From a virus: a stretch of 64,000 bases of DNA. The translations under genes were made by a program, and so were the position numbers. Location: positions 1-64,000 of the IMG/VR virus record IMGVR_UViG_3300042290_000327; one strand, written 5' to 3'. Under the pieces are notes generated by a model. That model worked only from the letters and a program-made list of their open reading frames with translations, searched no databases and had not been told where the DNA came from. This document shows positions 13,968-25,515 of this stretch, piece after piece; the first letter of the stretch is position 1; each line of letters begins with the position of its first letter.

Positions 13968-15598
13968 GTAAGAGAGTAGAATTTTCAAATCAAGCCCGTC
14001 TACGGCTCCTAGCAGGAGTTGAGCAGCTTGCCAACGCAGTAACTTCGACATTAGGTCCTAACGGCCGGAATGTCATCATCGAGCAATCAGCCGGTAACCC
14101 GACCTCAACCAAGGACGGTGTGACGGTTGCCAAGGCGATGGAGCTAGAAGATACTATCGAGAACATGGGTGCCCAGCTGGTAAAGCAAGCATCCATTAAG
14201 ACCGCTGACGGAGCCGGTGACGGTACTACTACCTCAACCCTTCTGGCGTACGAGATCTACAGAGAGGGTCTAGAGTATCTAGACTTACATAACGCTGTTG
14301 ATATCAGCCGAGGAGTAGCCAAGGCTACTAAAGGAGTGGTAGAGTATCTGGAGAAACAGGCCCGCGAAATCACTGACGAGAATCAGCTAAGACAGGTAGC
14401 TACTATCTCAGCCAACAACGACCCAGAGGTCGGAGAGCTGATTGCTGCTGCAATGGATAAGGTAGGCCGGGATGGAGTCGTTACTATTGAAGAGTCAAGG
14501 ACGGGTGAGACCTATCTAGAGACTGTTGAGGGTATGCAATTCAATAGAGGTTACAAGTCGATATACTTTGTTACCGATAACAATAGCATGACTGCAGCTC
14601 TGACTAATCCACTGGTGCTGATAACGGATAAAAAGGTTACCGCTGCTAAAGAGCTGCTACCTATACTAGAGGCTTGCTCGGCACAGAACAAGGCTCTGCT
14701 TATTATCGCCGATGACATCGACGGTGAGGCTTTATCAACGCTGGTGGTCAATAAGATGAGAGGTATCTTGCAGGTGGTGGCTGTGAAGGCTCCTGAGTTC
14801 GGAGATCGCAAAAAAGCTATCCTTGAGGATATCGCTACACTGACCGGCGGTCAAGTAGTATCAGCCGAGAAAGGAATGAGACTTGAGAAGTTCAATACCG
14901 ACTGGCTAGGTTCAGCCCGGAAGGTCACCATCGGGAAAGAAGAGACTACAATCGTTGACGGCAAAGGCACCTCAGAAGCTATCCAGGAACGGGTTGAAGA
15001 GATCAAAGCTATGATCGATAACTCAAAGTCACCTTTCGAAAAAGAGTCCTTGCAGGACCGGTTAGGTAGGCTAATAGGCGGTGTAGCGATCGTTTACGTA
15101 GGAGGTCAATCTGAACTAGAGATGAAGGAGAAAAAAGATAGGGTAGAGGATGCACTGCATGCTACTAAGGCAGCCTTGCAGGAGGGCATTTTGCCGGGTG
15201 GTGGTATCGCACTGCTTAACGCCGGCCGCTTCCTGGAGTCAAATAAAGGTGATCTGCATTTCGCTAACACCTCTACTGAGGTCGGATATAATATCCTTCT
15301 GCAGGCTATCAATAAGCCCTTCTTTAAGATCCTGACTAATGCCGGGTACAGTACCGAGTACTGTGATGGCATCAAGGCTAAGGTTCTTGACACGGGTAAT
15401 CCCTGGCAAGGTTTTAATCTACGGACTGAAGAGTACGTTGATATGTTTGAGGAAGGTATTATCGATCCTGCCAAGGTAACACGCCTGGCATTAGAAAATG
15501 CAGCTTCAATTGCAGGTACTATGCTTACAACCGAATGCGTTATAAGCAACCTAAAGGAGAAGAGCAGTGACCCTATGGATTTTAATTCAATGATGTAA
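13964..15598 (+). CDS. groEL: chaperonin GroEL
   Basis: TLGPNGRNV, TKDGVTVA, GDGTTT, GIIDPAKV. Confidence 0.97.
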   Translation: MSKRVEFSNQARLRLLAGVEQLANAVTSTLGPNGRNVIIEQSAGNPTSTKDGVTVAKAMELEDTIENMGAQLVKQASIKTADGAGDGTTTSTLLAYEIYREGLEYLDLHNAVDISRGVAKATKGVVEYLEKQAREITDENQLRQVATISANNDPEVGELIAAAMDKVGRDGVVTIEESRTGETYLETVEGMQFNRGYKSIYFVTDNNSMTAALTNPLVLITDKKVTAAKELLPILEACSAQNKALLIIADDIDGEALSTLVVNKMRGILQVVAVKAPEFGDRKKAILEDIATLTGGQVVSAEKGMRLEKFNTDWLGSARKVTIGKEETTIVDGKGTSEAIQERVEEIKAMIDNSKSPFEKESLQDRLGRLIGGVAIVYVGGQSELEMKEKKDRVEDALHATKAALQEGILPGGGIALLNAGRFLESNKGDLHFANTSTEVGYNILLQAINKPFFKILTNAGYSTEYCDGIKAKVLDTGNPWQGFNLRTEEYVDMFEEGIIDPAKVTRLALENAASIAGTMLTTECVISNLKEKSSDPMDFNSMM

Positions 15599-15735
15599 TG
15601 AGCAAAGTTTCAAGCAAAGCCCGGTACGAGGCATTTCAGGAGTGGTATAAGTGGGCGTCCAATCGCTACGCTTCTTTAAAAAAGAAAAGACGCCCTGACT
15701 CCCAGGACGGTAACTCCAATACTCCTCAGCGATGA
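15598..15735 (+). CDS. small basic hypothetical protein (45 aa)
   Basis: TAATG coupling to groEL; not in ORF track. Confidence 0.45.
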   Translation: MSKVSSKARYEAFQEWYKWASNRYASLKKKRRPDSQDGNSNTPQR

Positions 15736-15899
15736 AGTTCAAGCCCGGTGATACAGTCAAGGTTCTAGATCCTAGAATCAGCTTTACAGTATGTAAGGTA
15801 GTAGAAGTAGAAGGTGCTATCATCCGTATAGAAGATGCCTCAGGAGCAATCCACGAAGTATTCGCTGAACAGCTCCATAAGCAGCTACTATTTGGTTAA
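15732..15899 (+). CDS. small SH3/KOW-like hypothetical protein (55 aa)
   Basis: ATGA coupling; MKFKPGDTVKV pattern. Confidence 0.55.
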   Translation: MKFKPGDTVKVLDPRISFTVCKVVEVEGAIIRIEDASGAIHEVFAEQLHKQLLFG

Positions 15900-15976
15900 A
15901 ACTCTTCTTAGCAGCTTTAGACCTTCGGGGCTATTTATCTTAGTACTATCTCTAGTTTAATTTTGTCTTACTAAAA

Positions 15977-16147
15977 ATGGATCTTAATCGGATTGAAGAA
16001 CTAGGGTTCTTAGCTCACAAGGAAGGTTTTTTCACTCAATGGCAGGACACTGCCTCGCGTTATCTAAAGCGAGAGAACTACCAAGATTCTACTGAAGCCT
16101 ACGAAAGAGCTTACGCAAAATACTCCCAAACAGTTGGATCAAATTAA
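15977..16147 (+). CDS. small hypothetical protein (56 aa)
   Basis: MDLNRIEELG...GSN* after A-rich leader. Confidence 0.5.
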   Translation: MDLNRIEELGFLAHKEGFFTQWQDTASRYLKRENYQDSTEAYERAYAKYSQTVGSN

Positions 16148-16427
16148 ACAAGTTATTATATTTAGCTAGATGAATGGTTTTAGATTTTTGTATTGGGATG
16201 ATTATGAAGCGCCTAAGGGAGACAGCAGAGGAGAGAGCTCTAGCACAGAAGATACGCCGGAAAATGATTCAAAGGGATCACGGGGCGGAAAAGACCCGGT
16301 ATAGACGAGATAAGAGTTGGATGCGAAATGAGTTGGATTGACGAATACGACAATTGGGCACCCGACAGTCCTATGAGCGGACACGTCCTCCATATAGAGG
16401 AGGAAGAGGAGTAAACTCCTAAACCAA

Positions 16428-16512
16428 GCACCAGTGATGAAATGGTAGACATGAGGGACTTAAAATCCCTTGGGCAGGAATGCTCGTGCCGGTTCGAGTC
16501 CGGCCTGGTGTA
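16428..16512 (+). tRNA. tRNA-Leu(TAA)
   Basis: GCACCAG/CTGGTGT acceptor, AGGGA-CTTAAAA-TCCCT, long variable arm. Confidence 0.95.
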
Positions 16513-16535
16513 CAAAAGAAAAAGTTTTTAAAAAA

Positions 16536-16567
16536 GTTGCCTTAATAAAAAATTCTTCATATATTTA
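16536..16567 (+). promoter_or_regulatory. Bacteroidota-type promoter of leader peptide
   Basis: GTTG-N20-TATATTTA, 7 nt before ATG 16575. Confidence 0.75.
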
Positions 16568-16574
16568 TATAACG

Positions 16575-16658
16575 ATGAGACACTGCTTTACATATAACGC
16601 GTCGTGGACACTTCCAGTGCAGAGCATTGAGAAGGATGGTCCTATGTATGCCGGGTGA
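16575..16658 (+). CDS. putative attenuator leader peptide MRHCFTYNASWTLPVQSIEKDGPMYAG (all 20 amino acids)
   Basis: 20 different residues in first 22 codons; 3' end overlaps antiterminator strand. Confidence 0.8.
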   Translation: MRHCFTYNASWTLPVQSIEKDGPMYAG

Positions 16659-16697
16659 AGCAGTCTTAGAGTAACTACGAGACTACAGAAGCCCGGC
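16650..16697 (+). promoter_or_regulatory. putative antiterminator
   Basis: GCCGGGT 16650-16656 can pair with terminator 5' arm GCCCGGC 16691-16697, enclosing AGTCT/AGACT hairpin. Confidence 0.7.
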
Positions 16698-16722
16698 CCC
16701 CAAAGCCGGGTTTTTTGTTTTT
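16689..16722 (+). terminator. intrinsic terminator of the attenuator
   Basis: AAGCCCGGC-CCCCAAA-GCCGGGTTTTTTGTTTTT. Confidence 0.9.
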
Positions 16723-16753
16723 AAGTAGTTACAAAAAAAAAAATAGCCGAAAA

Positions 16754-16785
16754 GTTGGACTGAAGTAAAAACGGTTCTATCTTTA
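16754..16785 (+). promoter_or_regulatory. promoter of tRNA array
   Basis: GTTG-N20-TATCTTTA. Confidence 0.7.
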
Positions 16786-16811
16786 GGTCACTGAGTCGGT
16801 AACACGGCGAA

Positions 16812-16832
16812 GTTCTTTGACATACTGGTAAA
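16812..16832 (+). promoter_or_regulatory. boxA-like element / leader strand of long-range helix (copy 1)
   Basis: GTTCTTTGACATACTGGTAAA resembles rrn boxA; repeated at 20225. Confidence 0.65.
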
Positions 16833-16835
16833 AAT

Positions 16836-16908
16836 GATTCCGTAGCTCAGTTGGTAGAGCAGTACACTTTTAATGTACGGGCCGTGGGTTCGAGCCCCAC
16901 CGGGATCA
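16836..16908 (+). tRNA. tRNA-Lys(TTT)
   Basis: cloverleaf, GTACA-CTTTTAA-TGTAC. Confidence 0.95.
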
Positions 16909-17015
16909 CAGGCGGTTATGCTTCCGAAGTGCTGGTTAGACTGAGACACCTAATCGATGAGCCCATCAAAAAGTGAGTAGTTTTGTGGTAACTACTTAAA
17001 AGTAAACCGCAACAC

Positions 17016-17133
17016 AGTCAGGTGGCGGAATGGTAGACGCACGAAAAAGCAGGTGAGATACAGACTGCTCCAGCAATGGATGATCAAGTGTCCTTGGAAG
17101 GCTCACACACAGGTTCGATTCCTGTCCTGACTA
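17016..17133 (+). ncRNA. tRNA-scaffold RNA copy 1 (118 nt)
   Basis: AGTCAGG/CCTGACT-A acceptor, Leu-type D arm, T arm; unique insert instead of anticodon arm. Confidence 0.75.
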
Positions 17134-17223
17134 CGATTCATAGTGAACCATCTATGAACACAACCAAAGAGTAATATTGGAGGAACTATCAAAGTGGTGA
17201 CGGCTCGGAAAGACGAGTATTAT

Positions 17224-17295
17224 TGGACAGAGCAGGGTATTGCAGCTTGAGGTTCCTAGGCTCAAGAAGATGTGGTTCGAGCCCACACTGTCCAG
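17224..17295 (+). tRNA. atypical tRNA-like RNA (central CCT, 9-nt anticodon loop)
   Basis: TGGACAG/CTGTCCA, GCA/TGC mini D arm, CTTGAG-GTTCCTAGG-CTCAAG, TGTGG-TTCGAGC-CCACA. Confidence 0.6.
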
Positions 17296-17300
17296 CAAAC

Positions 17301-17384
17301 AGTCAGGTGGCGGAATGGTAGACGCAGTAGGGAGAGCCAAAGAGGTATCTACGAAAGTTACAGGTTCGAATCCTGTCCTGACTA
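17301..17384 (+). ncRNA. tRNA-scaffold RNA copy 2 (84 nt)
   Basis: same scaffold; GTAGG/TCTAC stem with 16-nt loop. Confidence 0.75.
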
Positions 17385-17465
17385 CCTAGCCTTGATTTGG
17401 GGCAAGTGCTCGTACATGTTTGCGGGTAAGTCAATACTAAATCTATACTGATGGAAAGACATCGG

Positions 17466-17541
17466 AGTCGGGAAAAGTTGGCATCGGAATGAGCAGTTCG
17501 AAATGTTTCACCGAGTGCAGGTTCGAATCCTGTCCTGACTA
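17466..17541 (+). ncRNA. tRNA-scaffold RNA copy 3 (76 nt, D arm lost)
   Basis: AGTCGGG/CCTGACT acceptor with G-U, T arm, TCGG/CCGA inner stem. Confidence 0.65.
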
Positions 17542-17650
17542 CAAAGTGTTGGTATCCAGGTGGGTGAAGTAGGGGATATACACTTAAATAAAACAACAAC
17601 GGTGAAAATATGTAACGGCCGATAAACATAGAAGTAGCAACGAAGCCCGT

Positions 17651-17703
17651 GACACCAAGTAGATGCCTCCACGTGGCGGTGTTGGATAACCAACCAAATC
17701 TAT
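17651..17703 (+). ncRNA. minimal HDV-like (theta-type) self-cleaving ribozyme
   Basis: P1 GACACC/GGTGTT, P2 GTAGAT/ATCTAT, P3 GCC/GGC, L3 TCCACGT, P1.1 GG, J4/2 ACCAA. Confidence 0.8.
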
Positions 17704-17713
17704 AAATTAAAAT

Positions 17714-17816
17714 AGTCAGGTGGCGGAATGGTAGACGCTAAGTGGGTACACACGATCCCTATTGCAGCAAGGTACACGGCGGCTGGGGAGTACAGGTTCA
17801 AATCCTGTCCTGACTA
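17714..17816 (+). ncRNA. tRNA-scaffold RNA copy 4 (103 nt)
   Basis: same scaffold, unique insert. Confidence 0.75.
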
Positions 17817-17891
17817 CGATGCTTAAAACTAAAACTGAGTGGTTGTCAGTTTATGTTACGCTTTGTTTACGATGGTTCGACTCCATCATAC

Positions 17892-18018
17892 AGTCAGGTG
17901 GCGAAATGGTAGACGCAAATGCCACTCGGAGAAGAAGGAACTACGCCAACATCTCCTTGCAAGTGGTAGGGTATCCTAAAGAGTAAATCCCATACAGGTT
18001 CGAATCCTGTCCTGACTA
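17892..18018 (+). ncRNA. tRNA-scaffold RNA copy 5 (127 nt)
   Basis: same scaffold; TGCCACT/AGTGGTA and GGAGA/TCTCC stems in insert. Confidence 0.75.
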
Positions 18019-18132
18019 CAGGGATATACACTCAAAAAGTGTTGTTAGCAATTCGAATTAGTACGGCTTTGTCTGAGCGAAATTCTTAGGTTGTATAGGC
18101 AGTGGAGCGACACCACATATCTTTTCTAAAAT

Positions 18133-18240
18133 AGTTAGGTGGCGGAATTGGTAACGCACATACAACGAGAGTTCTGCGGGCTCAACCATAAAGAGAGGTG
18201 TATGGTGGTATAAATACAGGTTCGAATCCTGTCCTGACTA
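18133..18240 (+). ncRNA. tRNA-scaffold RNA copy 6 (108 nt)
   Basis: AGTTAGG/CCTGACT; CATACA/TGTATG stem in insert. Confidence 0.75.
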
Positions 18241-18244
18241 CAAT

Positions 18245-18319
18245 GCACCCTTAGCTCAGTTGGTTCAGAGCGTCTCGTTTACACCGAGAGGGTCGGAGGT
18301 TCGAATCCTTCAGGGTGCA
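18245..18319 (+). tRNA. tRNA-Val(TAC)
   Basis: cloverleaf, TCTCG-TTTACAC-CGAGA. Confidence 0.95.
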
Positions 18320-18325
18320 CAAAAT

Positions 18326-18407
18326 GCCTGTATCGCATAGCGGCAATTGCAGCTGACTGTAAATCAGCTCCCATTCGGGTTCGGAGGTTCGAGTCCTTCT
18401 GCAGGCA
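18326..18407 (+). tRNA. tRNA-Tyr(GTA)
   Basis: GCTGA-CTGTAAA-TCAGC, variable arm. Confidence 0.93.
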
Positions 18408-18565
18408 CAAAATTTAAGTTCCTTGTATCTCGTAAAGAGATTCCCGAAAAATAGACTGTCAGCTAGAAGTAGGGTATCGATGATAAGAGTTGAGGAGACG
18501 TAGAAGCGGGTGAATGAATTAGCACTAATAGGTCACCGACGTCGTGCCAAGCTTAAATTTTTAAC

Positions 18566-18647
18566 GGGGGTATCGCATAGCGGCAATTGCAAGGGACTGT
18601 AACTCCCTCCTCATTCGAGTTCGGTGGTTCGAGTCCACCTGCCCCCA
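18566..18647 (+). tRNA. tRNA-Tyr(GTA), second copy
   Basis: AGGGA-CTGTAAC-TCCCT, variable arm. Confidence 0.93.
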
Positions 18648-18652
18648 CACTC

Positions 18653-18726
18653 GCACTGGTAGCTCAATTGGATAGAGCACTTGACTACGGATCAAGAGGT
18701 TCGGGGTTCGACTCCCTGCCGGTGCA
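18653..18726 (+). tRNA. tRNA-Arg(ACG)
   Basis: CTTGA-CTACGGA-TCAAG. Confidence 0.95.
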
Positions 18727-18808
18727 CTGAAGATGGTTATAACAAATACCTGTACCAGAATACCGGTCAAAAATCAGGAATGTGTAGGTAGCGACTTACC
18801 GCTAAACA

Positions 18809-18881
18809 GGACCCGTAGCTCAGTTGGTAGAGCGTCGCCCTGAAGAGGCGAGCGTCAGCAGTTCGAATCTGTTCGGGTCCA
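18809..18881 (+). tRNA. tRNA-Phe(GAA)
   Basis: TCGCC-CTGAAGA-GGCGA. Confidence 0.95.
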
Positions 18882-18887
18882 CAGCAC

Positions 18888-18962
18888 TGGAATGTAGCTC
18901 AGTTGGTTTAGAGCACCTCGCTGATACCGAGGGGGTCGTAGGTTCGAGTCCTATCTTTCCAA
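18888..18962 (+). tRNA. tRNA-Ile(GAT)
   Basis: CCTCG-CTGATAC-CGAGG; one U-U mismatch in acceptor. Confidence 0.88.
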
Positions 18963-18966
18963 CAAC

Positions 18967-19040
18967 GGTCCTGTACCCAAGCGGTCAAAGGGAACTGTTT
19001 GCAAAACAGCCACTCGCTGGTTCGAATCCAGCCGGGACCT
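18967..19040 (+). tRNA. tRNA-Cys(GCA)
   Basis: CTGT-TTGCAAA-ACAG, U73. Confidence 0.92.
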
Positions 19041-19046
19041 CTACAG

Positions 19047-19117
19047 TACCCCGTCGTCTAATGGCAGGACAAATGACTTTGACTCATTTAATGGTAGTTC
19101 GAATCTATCCGGGGTAA
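19047..19117 (+). tRNA. tRNA-Gln(TTG)
   Basis: AATGA-CTTTGAC-TCATT. Confidence 0.93.
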
Positions 19118-19122
19118 CAAAC

Positions 19123-19193
19123 GCGTCTGTAGTGAAAGGGTATCATAGGGGTCTCCAAAACCTTTGTTGAGGGTTCGAATCCTTCCGGGCGTG
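19123..19193 (+). tRNA. tRNA-Trp(CCA)
   Basis: GGGGT-CTCCAAA-ACCTT. Confidence 0.92.
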
Positions 19194-19199
19194 CTAGAT

Positions 19200-19273
19200 G
19201 GCGAGGTAGCTCAGATGGTTAGAGCGCAGGATTCATAACCCTGAGGTCGGCAGTTCGATCCTGCCTCTCGCTA
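19200..19273 (+). tRNA. elongator tRNA-Met(CAT)
   Basis: CAGGA-TTCATAA-CCCTG, paired 1-72. Confidence 0.9.
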
Positions 19274-19274
19274 C

Positions 19275-19507
19275 TAAAATAAGAGGACCTATCGCTTCAA
19301 AAGAAGAGGAAACTCAGGACATCACAGCTTAAGGTGGAAGATATAAGGTGTACGCCTTATCTCGCACGATTATAAGGTTACAGCCTTATAACATTACACC
19401 ACCGAGGATGCAACCCGAAACAGTCTATAATGGTGAGCTGATTAGACAAGGTAGGGGCAAAGATTAATGATAGGATAAAACAAGATCCTGGTTACTCTCT
19501 TATTTTA
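19275..19507 (+). ncRNA. rnpB: minimal RNase P RNA
   Basis: P1 ends pair; GAGGAAACTCAGGA pairs TCCTGGTT (P4 with bulged U); P2 CCTATC/GATAGG; P5, P6, P7, P15 identifiable. Confidence 0.85.
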
Positions 19508-19512
19508 AACAT

Positions 19513-19586
19513 GGTGGATGTAGCTCAGTTGGTAGAGCAATAGATTGTGGTTCTATTGGTCGCGGGTTCGATTCCCGTCATTCACC
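19513..19586 (+). tRNA. tRNA-His(GTG)
   Basis: G-1/C73, ATAGA-TTGTGGT-TCTAT. Confidence 0.95.
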
Positions 19587-19595
19587 CTAAACAAA

Positions 19596-19683
19596 GGAAG
19601 GTTGGCTGAGTGGACGAAAGCGGTAGTTTGCTAAACTATTGATCGGGTTAACCGGTCCACAGGTTCGAATCCTGTACCTTCCG
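19596..19683 (+). tRNA. tRNA-Ser(GCT)
   Basis: GTAGT-TTGCTAA-ACTAT, long variable arm, G73. Confidence 0.95.
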
Positions 19684-19700
19684 CATTTTAGTTATTAATC

Positions 19701-20162
19701 ATGAACAAGGTATTTAAAAGCGGTACTACCGGCAGACCTATCAACTTAATCAGTTACATTCTGGATTACATAAAAGAATATCCAGAGACAAAGATTTACG
19801 TTGGTACTGACTCCCAGAACAGGGGTCCGGAGACAATCTACGCTACTACGGTAGTGCTGAGATACAGAACAAGAGGATGCCATGTTCTGTATTACAAAAC
19901 AAGAGTTCCTCTGGTAAGAGATTTTTGGAGCAGGCTCTGGAGAGAGACAGAAATGTCAATCGAAACTGCTACATTTATTGTGGAGAATAGTCCTCTAAAG
20001 GTGGAGTCAATAGATCTTGACTTTAATGATGATGAGTATAAGGCTTCAAATAAATTAGTCTCTGCTTCTAAAGGATGGGTATCGGCTGCAGGCTTTAAGT
20101 CTACAACCAAACCTGCCCTGCAGATTGCAACCAGAGCAGCCGATCACATTATCAGAAATTAA
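19701..20162 (+). CDS. RNase H-like YkuK/DUF458 family protein
   Basis: IYVGTDSQ, RLWRE, IDLDFN, ATRAADH motifs. Confidence 0.8.
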   Translation: MNKVFKSGTTGRPINLISYILDYIKEYPETKIYVGTDSQNRGPETIYATTVVLRYRTRGCHVLYYKTRVPLVRDFWSRLWRETEMSIETATFIVENSPLKVESIDLDFNDDEYKASNKLVSASKGWVSAAGFKSTTKPALQIATRAADHIIRN

Positions 20163-20172
20163 TTCTGAAAGA

Positions 20173-20204
20173 GTTGCCAGAATGTAAAAACGTTCGTATC
20201 TTTA
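20173..20204 (+). promoter_or_regulatory. internal promoter of tRNA array
   Basis: GTTG-N20-TATCTTTA. Confidence 0.7.
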
Positions 20205-20224
20205 TATAGTTGAAAGAGAACAAC

Positions 20225-20245
20225 GATCTTTGACATACTGGTAAA
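20225..20245 (+). promoter_or_regulatory. boxA-like element / leader strand (copy 2)
   Basis: GATCTTTGACATACTGGTAAA. Confidence 0.65.
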
Positions 20246-20302
20246 AAAACTTAGACACGTTCTCGTGTTTTCCAAGCCTCTACCTATTTATATAAAAGAG
20301 GT

Positions 20303-20731
20303 ATGAGAAAAGAAACACGAGAAGACTTTCAAAAAGCTATAGAAGCTTCAAACTCTATGCAAGAAGCTGCTAGACTGTTGGGAATGAGCTACGATACTTT
20401 TAGAAGCTATGCTCGTAAGTACGGAGTTTTTAATCCTAATCAAGCGGGGAAAGGACGTATGAAGGCTAAAATTTATAAAGAGGCTGATGACGTATTTCAA
20501 AAGGTTGATAAACAGATCGGTAGAGCTATTGTAAAGAAATGGCTTCTGCAGGAAAGAGAGTATAGATGTCAAAAATGTGGAAATAGTGGGGAGTGGCAAG
20601 GAGAGCCTCTAGCTTTAGAGTTAGAACATATAAATGGAGATTCACTTGATAATACGAGAGAAAATCTACTTATACTATGTCCTAACTGCCACTCCCAAAC
20701 TTCTACCTTTAGAGGTAGGAAAATTAAATAA
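20303..20731 (+). CDS. HNH endonuclease with N-terminal HTH
   Basis: CQKCG...LELEHING...NLLILCPNCHSQ. Confidence 0.88.
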   Translation: MRKETREDFQKAIEASNSMQEAARLLGMSYDTFRSYARKYGVFNPNQAGKGRMKAKIYKEADDVFQKVDKQIGRAIVKKWLLQEREYRCQKCGNSGEWQGEPLALELEHINGDSLDNTRENLLILCPNCHSQTSTFRGRKIK

Positions 20732-20805
20732 GCCCTCGTGACGGAACTGGCATACGTACTAGACTTAGGATCTAGGTTTTGGGAGTTCGACTCTCCCCGG
20801 GGGTA
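20732..20805 (+). tRNA. tRNA-Leu(TAG), short variable loop
   Basis: CTAGA-CTTAGGA-TCTAG, 5-nt variable loop. Confidence 0.9.
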
Positions 20806-20814
20806 CAAAAATAT

Positions 20815-20891
20815 GGTCTCGTAGCTCAGCTGGATAGAGCATCGCACTTCTAATGCGACGGTCATTGGTTCGAATCCAATCGAGATCACCA
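20815..20891 (+). tRNA. tRNA-Arg(TCT)
   Basis: TCGCA-CTTCTAA-TGCGA, encoded CCA. Confidence 0.95.
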
Positions 20892-20895
20892 CAAT

Positions 20896-20968
20896 GGTCG
20901 GTTCATCTAGGGGTCTAGGATGTTACCCTTTCACGGTAGACACACGGGTTCGAATCCCGTACCGACTA
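20896..20968 (+). tRNA. tRNA-Glu(TTC)
   Basis: TTACC-CTTTCAC-GGTAG. Confidence 0.93.
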
Positions 20969-21079
20969 CAAAAGTGTTAACCACCCGACCTACTAGGGTG
21001 AAGTATCGAGTACGATATACTTGAATAGAATAGGTGGCTACCATAAGAACGCCATAAACTCGTTAACACTTTCTTATAT

Positions 21080-21151
21080 CGCGGGATAGAGCAGAGGTAG
21101 CTCACAAGGCTCATAACCTTGGGGTCGGAGGTTCGATTCCTTCTCCCGCAA
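21080..21151 (+). tRNA. initiator tRNA-fMet(CAT)
   Basis: C1-A72 mismatch, CAAGG-CTCATAA-CCTTG. Confidence 0.9.
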
Positions 21152-21158
21152 CTAGATA

Positions 21159-21232
21159 GGGGGATTAGCTCAGCTGGCTAGAGCGACTGCCTTGCACGCA
21201 GTAGGTCAACGGTTCGACTCCGTTATTCTCCA
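21159..21232 (+). tRNA. tRNA-Ala(TGC)
   Basis: G3-U70, ACTGC-CTTGCAC-GCAGT. Confidence 0.95.
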
Positions 21233-21321
21233 CTAAGAAGTGTCGCAATACGCGTTTCAATCTGATTGATAGACGTATCAATAAAAGATGTCCGGAGGTG
21301 AAAATCCTTAGCTTCTTAAAT

Positions 21322-21429
21322 AGTCAGGAGCGGAGTGGCTCCGTGATCGCAACTTAAAGAGATAGTCATACGAACTTTATGTGTCAGGCTATGTACGCGG
21401 TAGAACAGGTTCGATTCCTGTCCTGACTA
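21322..21429 (+). ncRNA. tRNA-scaffold RNA copy 7 (108 nt)
   Basis: AGTCAGG/CCTGACT, remodelled D arm GCGGAG/CTCCGT, ATAGTC/GGCTAT insert stem. Confidence 0.7.
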
Positions 21430-21480
21430 CGAGGCTATATTTTTGCATGTTTATTATAGCGAATAAAGAAAACATGCGTT

Positions 21481-21621
21481 AGTCAGGTGGCGGAATGGTA
21501 GACGCACCCAAAGTATGTGAGGGAAAAATAATCATATAGGTTGCTGCCTTAAGGTAGTAAGGCCTGAAAGTTTAAACTTTTAATTGTAAAAGTTATACAG
21601 GTTCAAATCCTGTCCTGACTA
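21481..21621 (+). ncRNA. tRNA-scaffold RNA copy 8 (141 nt)
   Basis: same scaffold; three hairpins in insert. Confidence 0.75.
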
Positions 21622-21707
21622 CACAATCAGCCACAAGAGGATTGGCATTGAGTTGTTGCAACTAAACAAAATGCAAGTGGTTGACAGCTTGGAAAGACAA
21701 GCAACAT

Positions 21708-21940
21708 AGTCAGGTGGCGGAATGGCTACTTCAACCCCGCGCAGTCGGAGCAATAGATACGGTTCGAATCCGTTGTGGGGTCAATGAGTAGTTTTGGTAG
21801 ACGCAGGTTTGTAGGTTACGTGCCACGAGATGAAAGCAACCTTAATATCGGAGTTAACAACCGAAAAGATAGTTAAACTATTGACCTGAATTGACAGGAA
21901 GTTAAATAATGGCTTACAGGTTCAAATCCTGTCCTGACTA
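21708..21940 (+). ncRNA. tRNA-scaffold RNA copy 9 (233 nt, extra D-loop insertion)
   Basis: same scaffold; D loop split by ~70-nt insertion carrying its own acceptor+T-arm mimic. Confidence 0.7.
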
Positions 21941-22155
21941 CAATGAGTAAGAGATACTCAGAGTCTTTAATCCAAGACTTAAACAATGGATAGGGTATTG
22001 GGCCGGACATCCTTAAACGCCGGTTTCGTGGGAACAAAGGAGAGCGACACACCTCCTCCCAGTAGTGTTGACTTTTTCAAGGTGTAAGAACCGCAGGGTT
22101 TTGAAAGCAAAAAACCGGGAATATCTACTCACTGGAATCTCAGGTGGGGTAATTT

Positions 22156-22229
22156 GGTGCGGTAGTTCAGTCGGTTAGAATACAGGCCTGTCACGCCTGG
22201 GGTCGCGGGTTCGAGTCCCGTCCGCACCG
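22156..22229 (+). tRNA. tRNA-Asp(GTC)
   Basis: CAGGC-CTGTCAC-GCCTG. Confidence 0.96.
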
Positions 22230-22368
22230 CTATAGAAACAGAGGAGGCGTAGAGCAACTAGCCGGGAGAGCGGCGACGCAAGGGTACACACTTAGTAGCT
22301 CTCTTATTGGTGTGTGAAGCTTCTTAGTCAGATTCCTGATAAAGTTGTTCCTGTTTCTTTTGTATATT

Positions 22369-22456
22369 GGAGGTTTGGCAGAGTGGTCGATTGCGGTAGT
22401 CTTGAAAACTATTGACTGTAACAGGTCCCGGGGTTCGAATCCCTGAGCCTCCGCCA
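22369..22456 (+). tRNA. tRNA-Ser(TGA)
   Basis: GTAGT-CTTGAAA-ACTAT, long variable arm, encoded CCA. Confidence 0.95.
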
Positions 22457-22457
22457 T

Positions 22458-22530
<73 letters not shown>

Positions 22531-22554
22531 CTAACTTTTAAATCCCCCTTTCTT

Positions 22555-22746
22555 ATGTCAAAAGCAGAGAAAATTCTCTACATGGTTATGTACACCTTGT
22601 TCACCGTTGGTACAATCCTTGCAATTGCTCGTAATGAATACGGCCATGCAATCTGGGTTATCACCGGGTTTATGTGGATGCATAACGCCTTTACCAATCG
22701 CCGGGAAGTAATTAAGCTCCAGGAAGAGTTGGAAAGTACAAAGTAA
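22555..22746 (+). CDS. small 2-TM membrane protein
   Basis: two hydrophobic stretches. Confidence 0.6.
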   Translation: MSKAEKILYMVMYTLFTVGTILAIARNEYGHAIWVITGFMWMHNAFTNRREVIKLQEELESTK

Positions 22747-22791
22747 GTTCATATATTTATATAAGTTAATCAATTAATTAAATTCAAAGTT

Positions 22792-22947
22792 ATGAAAAAT
22801 TTCATGCTTATGGCTGCTGCCGTTCTCGCTCTTGCTTCTTGCGCTAACACCGAAGAAGTAGCTGTTGAAGAAGTATCAGTAGACACTACCGCCGTAGTAG
22901 AAGATACTACTGTAGTAGCAGAAGGTGACGAAGCAGCTGCAGAATAA
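22792..22947 (+). CDS. small acidic lipoprotein (51 aa, not in ORF track)
   Basis: MKNFMLMAAAVLALAS-C lipobox; own promoter at 22728. Confidence 0.75.
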   Translation: MKNFMLMAAAVLALASCANTEEVAVEEVSVDTTAVVEDTTVVAEGDEAAAE

Positions 22948-23074
22948 TACTGAGTCTAGCCTCCAAATCCTAATAGCCGAAAGGTGATGGTTAGGTTGAC
23001 GTGGGAAAAGTCAACAACAGAGCAGGGGAAGAGCGTGAACCAATAAGCGCCTCGTCGAAATGCTTCCCCAATTT

Positions 23075-23147
23075 GCCTCCATAGCTCAGTTGGTAGAGCT
23101 GCTGATTTGTAATCAGCAGGTCGGCGGTTCGAGTCCGTCTGGAGGCT
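23075..23147 (+). tRNA. tRNA-Thr(TGT)
   Basis: GCTGA-TTTGTAA-TCAGC. Confidence 0.96.
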
Positions 23148-23296
23148 CAGCAGTTACCTGATTTAGCACTAGGACGGTAACAACCATTGGAGGAAGCTAA
23201 CCTCACGAATGGTCCTGTAGGTTGTCGATTAATCGCGTAAAGTTTCCTACCAGGTAGAGTAGGTGAGTCCTTGTTGGTGATAAAGCTCTACCGTTT

Positions 23297-23369
23297 GCGA
23301 AAGTAGCTCAGTTGGTAGAGCATGACCTTGCCAAGGTCAGGGTCGCCGGTTCGAACCCGGTCTTTCGCT
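23297..23369 (+). tRNA. tRNA-Gly(GCC)
   Basis: TGACC-TTGCCAA-GGTCA. Confidence 0.96.
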
Positions 23370-23374
23370 CTAAT

Positions 23375-23447
23375 GCGGTAATAGCTCAGTTGGTAGAGCA
23401 CGTTCCTTCCAAGTACGGGGTCGCAGGTTCGAATCCTGTTTACCGCT
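23375..23447 (+). tRNA. tRNA-Gly(TCC)
   Basis: CGTTC-CTTCCAA-GTACG. Confidence 0.92.
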
Positions 23448-23448
23448 C

Positions 23449-23745
23449 AAAAGTAATGTGGCTGAATAAAGGGTTAAGAGTCCTTAAGGCACTGGTCGAT
23501 CTGCTGAAAAGCAGTGAGGTTGGGTCATACAGACATATGAGTTAAAACCACTCAAACTATAGGGTAGAATGCGCAACCCGGTAGTCAATGAGGTCCCGCC
23601 AAGTGAGATAATTATGATCTTTGCAACGGGTGCTGGTAGTCAAGCCAGCTGGTCATTACAGCAGAACTAGCTACTCTGTTGGACCATGGGTGAAAAGGGG
23701 TATGTCCAGGACGTGTAGGTAGTCAGGAATCCTATCATTATTTTT
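23449..23745 (+). ncRNA. candidate ~300-nt structured ncRNA
   Basis: ends pair (AAAAGTAATG/CATTATTTTT), many internal hairpins, flanked by tRNAs. Confidence 0.45.
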
Positions 23746-23751
23746 TTTTAA

Positions 23752-23823
23752 GCTCATGTGGCGCAGTGGTAGCGCAGTAGACTGTTAATCTATTGGTCGT
23801 TGGTTCGAATCCATCCATGAGCG
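23752..23823 (+). tRNA. tRNA-Asn(GTT)
   Basis: GTAGA-CTGTTAA-TCTAT. Confidence 0.93.
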
Positions 23824-23828
23824 CTTAA

Positions 23829-23845
23829 TTTACCAGTATGTCAAA
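23829..23845 (+). repeat. trailer strand complementary to both boxA-like leaders
   Basis: TTTACCAGTATGTCAAA is the exact reverse complement of 16816-16832 and 20229-20245. Confidence 0.85.
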
Positions 23846-23848
23846 AAT

Positions 23849-23922
23849 GGGCCTGTAGCTCAGTCGGTTAGAGCGAGGGACTCATAATCCCCAGGTCCCA
23901 GGTTCGAGCCCTGGCAGGCCCA
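23849..23922 (+). tRNA. tRNA-Ile2(CAT) (probable lysidine tRNA)
   Basis: GGGCCTG acceptor, GGGA-CTCATAA-TCCC; third CAT tRNA. Confidence 0.85.
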
Positions 23923-24006
23923 CACTTAAACTAAACATAAACTTAAGTTAAACTTGATAAGAGAGTTTAATTCTATCTTATAATAAGATTAATTAACTTA
24001 ACGATT

Positions 24007-25515
24007 ATGAAAAAACTAGCGTTACTATTTGGGTTTATTTCAACAACCCTACTTGCACAAACTTCATTTTGGACTCCTACAGTATATAGAGGAGCATTTG
24101 AACCAGCTCCGGCCCCGATGTGGACTGACAGCTGGACTAACTGGGACCCGCAGTATACAATCTATCCAACTCCTACTGATGTAGTATCGGATTCAATTAC
24201 TTCAAATACTACTTGGACTAACAACAAGACTTATTTAGTTCAAGGCCCACTCTACGTAAAAGCTAATCTTACTATCCAGCCAGGTACTGTAGTTTTATTT
24301 GATAAGACAGCAGCCGGTTCTGCTTTGATTGTAACCAATAAGGGTAGACTATTTGCAGACGGACAAGAGAACAGCCCAATCATATTTGCTTCAAATGCCA
24401 TCCCGGGTCAAAGATCAATCGGGGACTGGGGAGGAATTGTACTATTAGGTGAGGCTAAAAATAATCTGCCAGCTAACACTGCTTCAGGTACTCCTGCAGG
24501 TATTGGTTATATTGAAGGTTTACCTACATCCAAAAATACTCAATACGGAGGCAACAACGATGAAGACACCTCAGGAGTTCTAAGGTATATCAGGATTGAA
24601 TTTGCCGGGTATGCTTACCAGCCTGATAAGGAAATCAATGGTATAACATTTGGTTCAGTGGGTAGAGGTACTCTAGTAGATTACGTTCAAGTATCGTTTG
24701 CTAATGATGATGCCTTTGAATGGTTTGGAGGTACTATAAATTGCAAGCACTTGGTTTCATACCGCAACCTGGACGACGACATGGATTGCGATTTTGGCTA
24801 CAGAGGTAAAGTTCAATTTGCTTTAATTGTTAGAGATCCTTTTATTGCTGACCAGTCATCAGGTTCAACCTCAGAAGGATTTGAATGTGATAATGACGGC
24901 TCCGGCTCTAACAACGGACCTAAGACAGCTGCTACATTCTCTAACGTAACTGCTATCGGTCCACTAAGAGGTGACCTACAAGCTACAGTCGATCCTAAGT
25001 TTAGAAGAGCTTTAAGACTCCGCCGGAACAGTGAAATGAAAATCTTCAACTCAGTCTTTATAGACTTTAAAGATGGTATTCATATTGACGGAACTTCCAC
25101 AGAAACAAATGCACTACAGAGTAGGTTAGTGTTCCAAAATAATCTGATTGCTGGCTGCAGCGGTAAATTTATCCTCAGAGGCACTAATCCTTCTTTTGAT
25201 GCCGGTGCCTGGTATTTTACTTCTAATGATACTCTAGCAGTTTCTACTGGATTATTTACCACTCCCTACAGCTACCTACAGCCTGACTATCGTCCATCAG
25301 CTACTAGCGGACTAGACACAGGAGCAAGCTTCACCGACACAAACTTGATCGGTAACACTATCTCAGTTAACGAAGAGCAGTTAGATGTTACTTATGAGAT
25401 TTATGATTGGTACGGTAACTTAGTCTATATTGGGAAACATATACCCTACGACAGACTTAAAGGATTATATGTAATCAAATATAGTGCCAAGCTAGAAAAA
25501 GTATTTGTATACTAA
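24007..25515 (+). CDS. secreted beta-helix-like surface protein of Bacteroidota type
   Basis: signal peptide; GDWGGIVLLG, SGVLRYIRIEFAG, DDAFEWFGG motifs; short CTD-like tail. Confidence 0.7.
   Translation: MKKLALLFGFISTTLLAQTSFWTPTVYRGAFEPAPAPMWTDSWTNWDPQYTIYPTPTDVVSDSITSNTTWTNNKTYLVQGPLYVKANLTIQPGTVVLFDKTAAGSALIVTNKGRLFADGQENSPIIFASNAIPGQRSIGDWGGIVLLGEAKNNLPANTASGTPAGIGYIEGLPTSKNTQYGGNNDEDTSGVLRYIRIEFAGYAYQPDKEINGITFGSVGRGTLVDYVQVSFANDDAFEWFGGTINCKHLVSYRNLDDDMDCDFGYRGKVQFALIVRDPFIADQSSGSTSEGFECDNDGSGSNNGPKTAATFSNVTAIGPLRGDLQATVDPKFRRALRLRRNSEMKIFNSVFIDFKDGIHIDGTSTETNALQSRLVFQNNLIAGCSGKFILRGTNPSFDAGAWYFTSNDTLAVSTGLFTTPYSYLQPDYRPSATSGLDTGASFTDTNLIGNTISVNEEQLDVTYEIYDWYGNLVYIGKHIPYDRLKGLYVIKYSAKLEKVFVY

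Follow-up and report, generated by a model that had tools for sequence, protein, structure and literature searches.

RNase P RNA is generally regarded as a housekeeping ribozyme of all cells, with a two-domain design that is a matter of textbooks, and the locus described here raises the question of whether a phage can carry a gene for this RNA, in what form, and to what end. The window analysed is a stretch of 64,000 nucleotides (nt), positions 1 to 64,000 of the IMG/VR virus record IMGVR_UViG_3300042290_000327, and the element in question occupies 233 nt (19275-19507, + strand) within an array of phage tRNA genes. An earlier note on this DNA had proposed that it is a phage-encoded minimal RNase P RNA without most of the specificity domain (S-domain), a proposal borne out by an end-to-end match to RF00010, the Rfam model of bacterial type A RNase P RNA, and by covariation. 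As judged from its sequence, this phage gene is homologous to bacterial type A RNase P RNA; the catalytic domain (C-domain) is kept, and the S-domain and helix P18 are lost.

In a permissive scan of 19150-19650 (501 bases), RF00010 aligns to 19276-19510 on the + strand over model positions 1-367, with 49.7 bits and an E value of 2e-14, and a search of the whole 120,715-base record with the same model returned this element as its one match (E 1.1e-15). This is the covariance-model check that had been suggested for the prediction, and its result is an end-to-end alignment, though one that scores under the Rfam gathering score; RNase P RNA is therefore absent from the default Rfam listing, and a scan at gathering thresholds lists tRNAs alone around 19275-19507. 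Within the RNase P clan the best model for the element is the bacterial RF00010, the lower-scoring clan members being dropped by the tool. The alignment retains P1, P2, a short P3, GAGGAAAcUCaGG, GCAA, the P15 arm with its GGU, AGAUuAAUG and ACAaGAuCCuGGUUAC. By comparison, about 140 RF00010 positions of the S-domain face 75 bases, with no S-domain consensus aligned, so that P8-P14 with conserved regions (CR) II and III, the part with which type A RNAs read the T/D-loop elbow of tRNA, were not found, and the 24 model positions of P18 face no bases at all; the absence of P10-P14 and P18 claimed earlier is thus upheld. The features expected of a type A RNA are present in the remainder. P4 with its bulged U, flanked by GAGGAAA (CR-I) and by ACAGAA..UUA (CR-V), is found at 19306-19319 and 19480-19495, and the junction J18/2 AGAUnAAU (CR-IV) and the J5/15 GCAA, at 19461-19469 and 19410-19413, are invariant or nearly so in 32 sequences. 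The arm is of type A rather than type B, having P15-P16-P17, an L15 GGU and a P6 pseudoknot to the P17 loop, with covariation.

Folding energy singles out neither the region nor the strand (minimum free energy, MFE; z = -2.31 for the + and -2.58 for the - strand), and the test must therefore be comparative. The element and 31 relatives, taken from the viral contigs with 115-175 nt between the P4 strands (see below), were aligned with MAFFT by sequence only (alignment A1, mean column identity 44%), and the alignment was scored against the structure of the element, with the P4 and P6 pseudoknots included. Standard pairs make up 89.3% of 1738 cells, compared with 66.1% in shuffles, a control uncorrected for relatedness in which none of 500 replicates reaches the observed value; when the partners are slid by 1-3 columns, a control which does correct for relatedness, only 35-44% are paired. 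Both sides vary in 47 of the 55 pairs, and the covariation score is 0.619, as against 0.192 in shuffles. The two P4 pairs left free by the search pattern described below also covary (C-G in 17 sequences, G-C in 14 and U-A in 1 for the first; A-U in 24, G-C in 7 and unpaired in 1 for the second). The comparison thus shows the catalytic domain, as far as pairing and conservation can tell, to be maintained by selection. The strand is fixed as well, since the wobble T19330-G19435 in P6, which is U-G in 23 of the 32 sequences, would be A-C on the opposite strand.

Every helix that the earlier note had named (P1-P7, P15 and P16, together with the bulged U) was recovered where it had been placed, all of them on the + strand. 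P1 (19275-19285 / 19497-19507, the 3' strand being CTCTTATTTTA) has 11 perfect pairs, all of which change on both sides in A1; its proportion of paired cells is low (71.6%) because MAFFT misaligns the variable 5' ends. P2 (CCTATC/GATAGG, 19288-19293 / 19469-19474) is aligned to the RF00010 P2, has 91.7% of cells paired and covaries at 6 of 6 pairs, and the P3 hairpin CTTC-AAAA-GAAG (19295-19306, strands 19295-19298 / 19303-19306), shortened in the Rfam alignment, is 91.4% paired with 3 of 4 pairs covarying. CR-I, GAGGAAACTCAGGA at 19306-19319, matches GAGGAAAGUCCGG of RF00010 and includes the 5' strand of P4 (19311-19319 / 19486-19493), which has T19314 bulged and 98.8% of cells paired. P5 (CATC/GATG, 19320-19323 / 19407-19410) is paired in 100% of cells and covaries at 4 of 4 pairs. 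The P6 pseudoknot is formed by the 5' strand CAGCTTA at 19325-19331 and by 19434-19440 (90.2% paired, 6 of 7 covarying), the latter being held in the P17 loop GGTGAGCTG, as in type A RNAs. P7 (GGTGG/CCACC, 19333-19337 / 19399-19403) is 91.2% paired with 4 of 5 pairs covarying, and the segment 19399-19413 carries its 3' strand CCACC, the 3' strand GATG of P5, and the J5/15 GCAA, which is aligned to the GCAA of RF00010 and of which the C and A are invariant or nearly so in A1.

The P15-P16-P17 arm follows at 19414-19457, with the GGT of its L15 loop (19450-19452) invariant or at least 90% conserved. P15 (CCC/GGG, preceded by GGTA; 19414-19416 / 19454-19456) is 97.9% paired and occurs in the variants CCC/GGG, CAC/GUG, CUC/GAG and CGC/GCG, while P16 (19423-19426 / 19444-19447) is 84.9% paired and P17 (19429-19431 / 19441-19443), which was absent from the earlier list of helices, is 95.7% paired. 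J18/2, AGATTAATG at 19461-19474 (CR-IV), runs into the P2 3' strand GATAGG with no P18 before it; it matches AGAUgAAUG of RF00010, and four of its bases (A, G, A and T) show no variation in A1. Some members of the family do keep an insert at the position of P18 (L018, L022, L024, L027 and L029-L031). Finally, CR-V, ACAAGATCCTGGTTAC at 19480-19495, carries the P4 3' strand (19486-19493) and matches ACAGAACCCGGCUUAC of RF00010.

The place of the S-domain is taken by little sequence, as P7 encloses AAG, a 57-nt insert and an A. Two near-duplicate TAAGG..CCTTA hairpins had been proposed within P7; this arrangement is the less likely one. One imperfect 49-nt hairpin (19342-19390, + strand) is predicted at -16.9 kcal/mol, compared with -11.1 kcal/mol for two tandem hairpins, and is followed by the single-stranded CATTACA (19391-19397, + strand). 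The five closest homologues (L025, L035, L039, L020 and L015) and further metagenome members likewise have one hairpin at the insert and then a conserved CGTTAT-like single strand. A single long hairpin is therefore the more likely fold of the insert, as modelled from MFE and homologues, rather than two tandem near-duplicates. Elsewhere in the family, few pairs are predicted in the insert (none in L102, 4 in L125 and 3 in L100), and a GAAA loop is frequent.

Variants of the element were also found in contigs from RNA libraries of 3 studies, and these were compared with the window position by position. The contigs span 19118-19636 (record 12 of X16, with 39 differences), 19118-19590 (record 15 of X17) and 19378-19606 (record 4 of X15), and 19048-19109 is uncovered by RNA-library contigs in all four runs. 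The differences fall in loops, in the insert, in P1 and P2, and at the junction bases 19417, 19484 and 19495, with none in the pairs of P4, P5, P6, P7 and P15-P17, in the L15 GGT or in J18/2. In the two wetland contigs which span the whole of P1, a change on the 3' side is accompanied by an inserted G on the 5' side.

How widespread such RNAs are was assessed by scanning IMG/VR with a pattern made of the two P4 strands, GAGGAAANTCNGG - gap - ACANNANCCNGNTTA, in which the gap of the 19275-19507 element is 161 nt. The viral contigs number 7 for gaps of 85-115 nt, 28 for 115-145 nt, 27 for 145-175 nt, 20 for 175-205 nt, 20 for 205-235 nt, 30 for 235-265 nt and 43 for 265-295 nt. All gap classes together comprise 172 distinct viral loci. 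One or more tRNAs occur at 134 of them, and at 95 a tRNA on the same strand lies no more than 100 nt away; the sizes of the elements form an unbroken series of spacings between full size and about 155 nt. A covariance model of the 3' half, from J5/15 to the P4 3' strand (R1, 97 positions), matches the element with 86.1 bits (E 3.6e-16), by construction since the element is a training member, and matches 50 of the 55 viral pattern loci with gaps of 115-175 nt at E <=0.01, 31 of these being training and 19 non-training sequences. Because the 3' end of R1 shares positions with the search pattern, some of each R1 score is built in. The five loci which R1 missed (L037, L103, L108, L114 and L116) look like chance or coding matches. 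The 19275-19507 element itself combines the R1 match, a P7 closing a short or single hairpin, and a position in a phage tRNA array by which the family is recognised.

Both ends of the size range deserve mention. The smallest class (L171-L177, e.g. L171:9754-9866) is about 155 nt overall with a gap of 85-115 nt and is without P7 or any S-domain remnant; its P5 loop seems to be base-paired with the loop of P17, each of its 7 members adjoins a same-strand tRNA, and a TATAAT-like box lies just upstream of several. Of the full-size patterns (gaps of 235-295 nt, L128-L170 and L216-L245), 33 of 73 adjoin a same-strand tRNA, and some of the contigs are 370-500 kb long. As these are type A patterns in viral contigs, phage carriage is not confined to the reduced forms.

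Among prokaryotes, sampled as one genome per species, the 145-175 nt pattern gave 57 loci (L041-L097), one of which adjoins a tRNA, and strong R1 matches were limited to L073 (81.9 bits) and L056 (66.3 bits, with 11 tRNAs). Stand-alone RNase P RNAs with this gap occur in contigs of metagenome-assembled genomes of Elusimicrobia, Shapirobacteria, Dojkabacteria and Patescibacteria (e.g. L069, L071, L043, L051 and L059). These RNAs keep the S-domain core sequences and do not lie beside tRNAs. Those of Elusimicrobia and Shapirobacteria reach 26-47 bits with R1 and are apparently reduced RNase P RNA genes belonging to the cells themselves, comparable to those published for bacteria of the candidate phyla radiation (PMC8172020). 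Metagenome contigs hold at least 120 stretches with the 145-175 nt pattern, and among the matches listed R1 recognises 63 of 80 loci, with scores of at least 60 bits for 33; some of these loci are on contigs that are also in IMG/VR. When the element and two other members of the family were compared with 50,697 phage records by distant-mode blastn, there was no match, and megablast of window positions 15000-25000 returned tRNA-sized matches only. Two GenBank entries filed as phage, L246 (MW495066.1, 112823-117917) and L247 (CAKLQF020000022.1, 44000-51000), were found by blastn of two full-size viral forms and contain RNase P RNA-like stretches, unannotated in both. They were rejected as phage-encoded for their bacterial-looking surroundings, with fabI, engB and mtgA in one and a prophage integrase, coaD and fdx in the other, and these stretches are probably host DNA.

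The record itself is 74% complete by CheckV and encodes a phage-type DNA polymerase as well as a match to the large terminase (record positions 101894-102484); the phage sheath family PF04984 was not found. At least 14 lake-water DNA runs contain at least 96% of the sampled words of 18800-19700, of which 8 are possible sources of the record; several of the runs may stem from a single campaign. The tRNA array consists of 27 same-strand tRNA genes between 16428 and 23923, where Rfam has 28 tRNA matches, and the gaps between neighbouring tRNAs are 4-9 nt. The element is packed as tightly: it begins 2 nt past the discriminator of tRNA-Met (19200-19274, + strand; discriminator A19273, then C19274, with P1 starting at 19275) and ends 6 nt ahead of tRNA-His (19514-19587, + strand), which has an encoded G-1 at 19513. 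A promoter and terminator scan found nothing beyond chance in the flanks of the element and one promoter-like match inside it (19443-19471). Of the 57 viral elements confirmed as mini or tiny, 26 are followed by a tRNA on the same strand that begins no more than 40 nt past the P4 3' strand; the distance is typically 11-24 nt and is 19 nt here. CCA is encoded by only 2 of the 28 tRNA genes of the array; C follows the discriminator directly in all 28, the usual continuation being CA.. or CT.., and this uniform C suggests that the tRNAs have a rule of 3'-end processing or recognition in common.

The element is followed by a tRNA-His/tRNA-Ser pair, and immediately beyond this pair the array also contains an open reading frame (ORF) for an RNaseH-like protein (PF04308, 19701-20162) and one for an HNH endonuclease (20303-20731). 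The RNaseH-like ORF has 79-83% protein identity in 12 related viral contigs, and the 12 related loci gathered through it have tRNA arrays similar to that of this phage. No RNase P RNA was found in these loci by Rfam (E <=0.001) or blastn, nor in whole related records by RF00010 (5 records) or R1 (4 records); one of the five, that of L003, is 170 kb long and rated 100% complete. An R1 match of 19.6 bits (E 0.064) in a related record was dismissed as too weak. The arrays of related phages contain matches to freshwater-1 RNA (RF02979) of 67-69 bits, under the gathering score of 72 (L002:3831-3893, L003:6733-6795, L006:3983-4045, L007:1106-1168 and L010:6809-6871), and weak matches to manA RNA, at 30 bits compared with a gathering score of 55, were seen in L008, L009 and L011-L013.

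Another feature of the array is a set of tRNA-like scaffolds, AGTCAGGTGGCGGAATGGTAGACGC ... CAGGTTCGAATCCTGTCCTGACT, with a tRNA-Leu-type frame, at window sites 17016-18244 and 21322-21940. The exact 3' motif of these scaffolds has 9 copies in the window and also occurs in the relatives L002 (4461), L003 (7363) and L007 (1308 and 1644), as well as in L015 (5708, 5897 and 6166) and L039 (3566); two of the L015 sites are the 3' ends of tRNA-Leu genes called by ARAGORN. By strict exact match it is present in only 2 of 62 viral loci of the 85-175 nt classes, 57 of the 62 being confirmed mini or tiny elements. The suggestion that the ribozyme is dedicated to maturing these odd scaffolds is not sustained by this distribution, as relatives without the ribozyme have the motif and all but 2 of the 62 scanned loci do without its exact form.

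The question of what the RNA does can then be addressed. Bacterial RNase P protein contacts its RNA at P2-P3, at J18/2 and at the P4 strands. A search for genes of the RnpA family gave no match in this record and none in 5 other carrier phage records, one of which is 329 kb long with terminal repeats and rated 100% complete. Because the protein-contact regions are the most conserved and no phage RnpA was matched, use of the host RnpA is most likely, and a partnership of the phage RNA with RnpA is at least consistent with the comparative data. We consider it probable that this miniature type A gene provides a functional catalytic subunit for an RNase P which serves the maturation of phage tRNAs and relies on the host protein. 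The RNA would be co-transcribed within the phage tRNA precursor, its 5' end being freed by 3' processing of tRNA-Met and its 3' end through RNase P cleavage at the G-1 of tRNA-His. Once joined to host RnpA, it would cut the 5' leaders of the 27 closely packed phage tRNAs, the substrate being held by its acceptor stem and 3' end, with the C after the discriminator pairing to the L15 GGU and the T/D-loop elbow left unread. The phage would thereby have its own supply of catalytic subunit during infection. In the part of PMC5839562 available to us, the type A C-domain alone is described as cleaving substrates, with reduced efficiency; by analogy with such engineered C-domain ribozymes, the specificity of the phage RNA may be relaxed, and enzyme function is its probable, predicted role.

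Several points weigh against this reading. The score of 49.7 bits for the 233-nt element is half the RF00010 gathering score of 100. Engineered C-domain ribozymes are, in the same available part of PMC5839562, poor enzymes. As only 2 of the 28 tRNAs encode CCA, the L15 GGU pairs with at most one encoded base before CCA addition. The five related records without an RNase P RNA imply that the gene is accessory in the lineage and dispensable for a similar tRNA array. The missing part of the record, of which 74% is present, could contain a phage RnpA. The RNA-library contigs, lastly, give a weak hint that the element is expressed, and DNA can occur in such libraries.

Other explanations have to be set beside the host-RnpA enzyme. 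It is rather unlikely, though the lack of RnpA in six phage records would fit, that the element is a working ribozyme independent of host RnpA, acting alone or with an unrecognised phage protein, and perhaps serving the scaffolds or phage mRNAs. A ribozyme that has lost its elbow-reading domain should be less strict about its substrates, and 9 scaffold copies lie in the same array, both of which would suit such a ribozyme; the regions assigned to protein contact are nevertheless the best conserved, and specialisation on scaffolds sits poorly with a motif shared by relatives without the ribozyme and found at 2 of 62 viral loci, most loci holding ordinary tRNA arrays. A non-catalytic mimic, soaking up host RnpA or competing with the host RNase P RNA and so reprogramming or shutting down host tRNA maturation, seems improbable. 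Such a decoy would account for the conserved protein-contact regions, would be small and abundant if made with the tRNAs, and would agree with the weak activity of engineered C-domains (PMC5839562, as far as its text was available). Yet the phage's own 27 tRNAs require the same enzyme, and features that a decoy would not need are covarying or conserved, namely the L15 GGU, J5/15, the bulged U and the geometry of P6 and P15-P17; the conservation of the first three argues for substrate binding and catalysis over a pure protein decoy. That the element is a functionless, decaying remnant of a captured host rnpB, as close relatives without the gene, the sub-threshold Rfam score and the size continuum across viral contigs might suggest, is highly improbable given that 47 of 55 pairs are kept through two-sided changes over 32 diverged copies, that core residues are invariant, and that lake-water variants spare the pairs of P4, P5, P6, P7 and P15-P17 as well as L15 and J18/2.

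With the host-RnpA enzyme retained as the preferred reading, a wider proposal can be put forward tentatively, with rather less than even confidence: phages may carry a graded natural deletion series of trans-acting RNase P ribozymes, from full size to about 155 nt, where nothing of the S-domain is left. The small forms would have full activity in vivo and would assume tRNA 5' maturation during infection, and they may be independent of the host RNA and resistant to anything that attacks it or shuts it down. Were this true, no natural RNase P enzyme of the bacterial type would be smaller than these phage forms, which would free their 3' ends through cleavage of the next tRNA. The phage family offers a natural experiment on the minimal catalytic core, as the elbow-reading domain is replaced by a hairpin here and by nothing in the sister class of about 155 nt. 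tRNA 5' maturation would join the translation steps supplied by phages, and compact ribozymes of this kind could be of use in structural work and in guide-sequence applications. Genes of this phage family escape Rfam scans run at the default thresholds. No published description of a phage-encoded RNase P RNA was found, including in the available text of PMC11143913, PMC6582537, PMC8172020, PMC2996960, PMC1874661 and two preprints, whose supplements may hold annotations.

Set against known systems, the phage element is closest to bacterial type A RNA (rnpB, E. coli M1 RNA), with which it shares the C-domain helices in the same order (P1-P5, P15-P17, and the P4 and P6 pseudoknots) as well as the bulged U of P4, GAGGAAA, the J5/15 GCAA, the L15 GGU, J18/2 AGAUnAAUG and ACAnnAnCCnGnUUA. 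It differs in measuring 233 nt compared with roughly 340-400, in having one hairpin in place of P8-P14 and no P18, and in being a gene inside a phage tRNA array, whereas cellular type A genes stand alone (a single one of the 57 prokaryote loci adjoins a tRNA). Another RNA to be considered is type T RNase P RNA, an archaeal, essential cellular gene which works with archaeal proteins. In the Thermoproteaceae (Pyrobaculum; Lai et al. 2010, cited in PMC8172020, with PMC3579882 on the same RNA), it is a natural RNA with the C-domain kept and most of the S-domain lost. Compared by description, the phage RNA resembles it in this very respect; unlike type T, however, it has the bacterial RF00010 as its best clan model, and it lies in a tailed-phage record beside a bacterial-type tRNA-His with G-1. 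The engineered C-domain RNAs (e.g. the Eco CP RNase P RNA, Eco CP RPR, in the portion of PMC5839562 available) also have the catalytic domain without the S-domain, but these are laboratory deletions, while the phage RNA is natural and conserved and retains P7 and a closing hairpin. Bacteria of the candidate phyla radiation (CPR) have diverged or reduced cellular RNase P RNAs which score below threshold with RF00010 and miss P12-P14, P18 and sometimes UGG, and a reduced RNA is cited for Mycoplasma fermentans, both according to the accessible part of PMC8172020. Like the CPR-type RNAs, the phage RNA is below threshold in RF00010 and has helices missing. It keeps the GGU motif and, unlike the reduced cellular forms of Elusimicrobia and Shapirobacteria, has lost the S-domain core and adjoins tRNAs.

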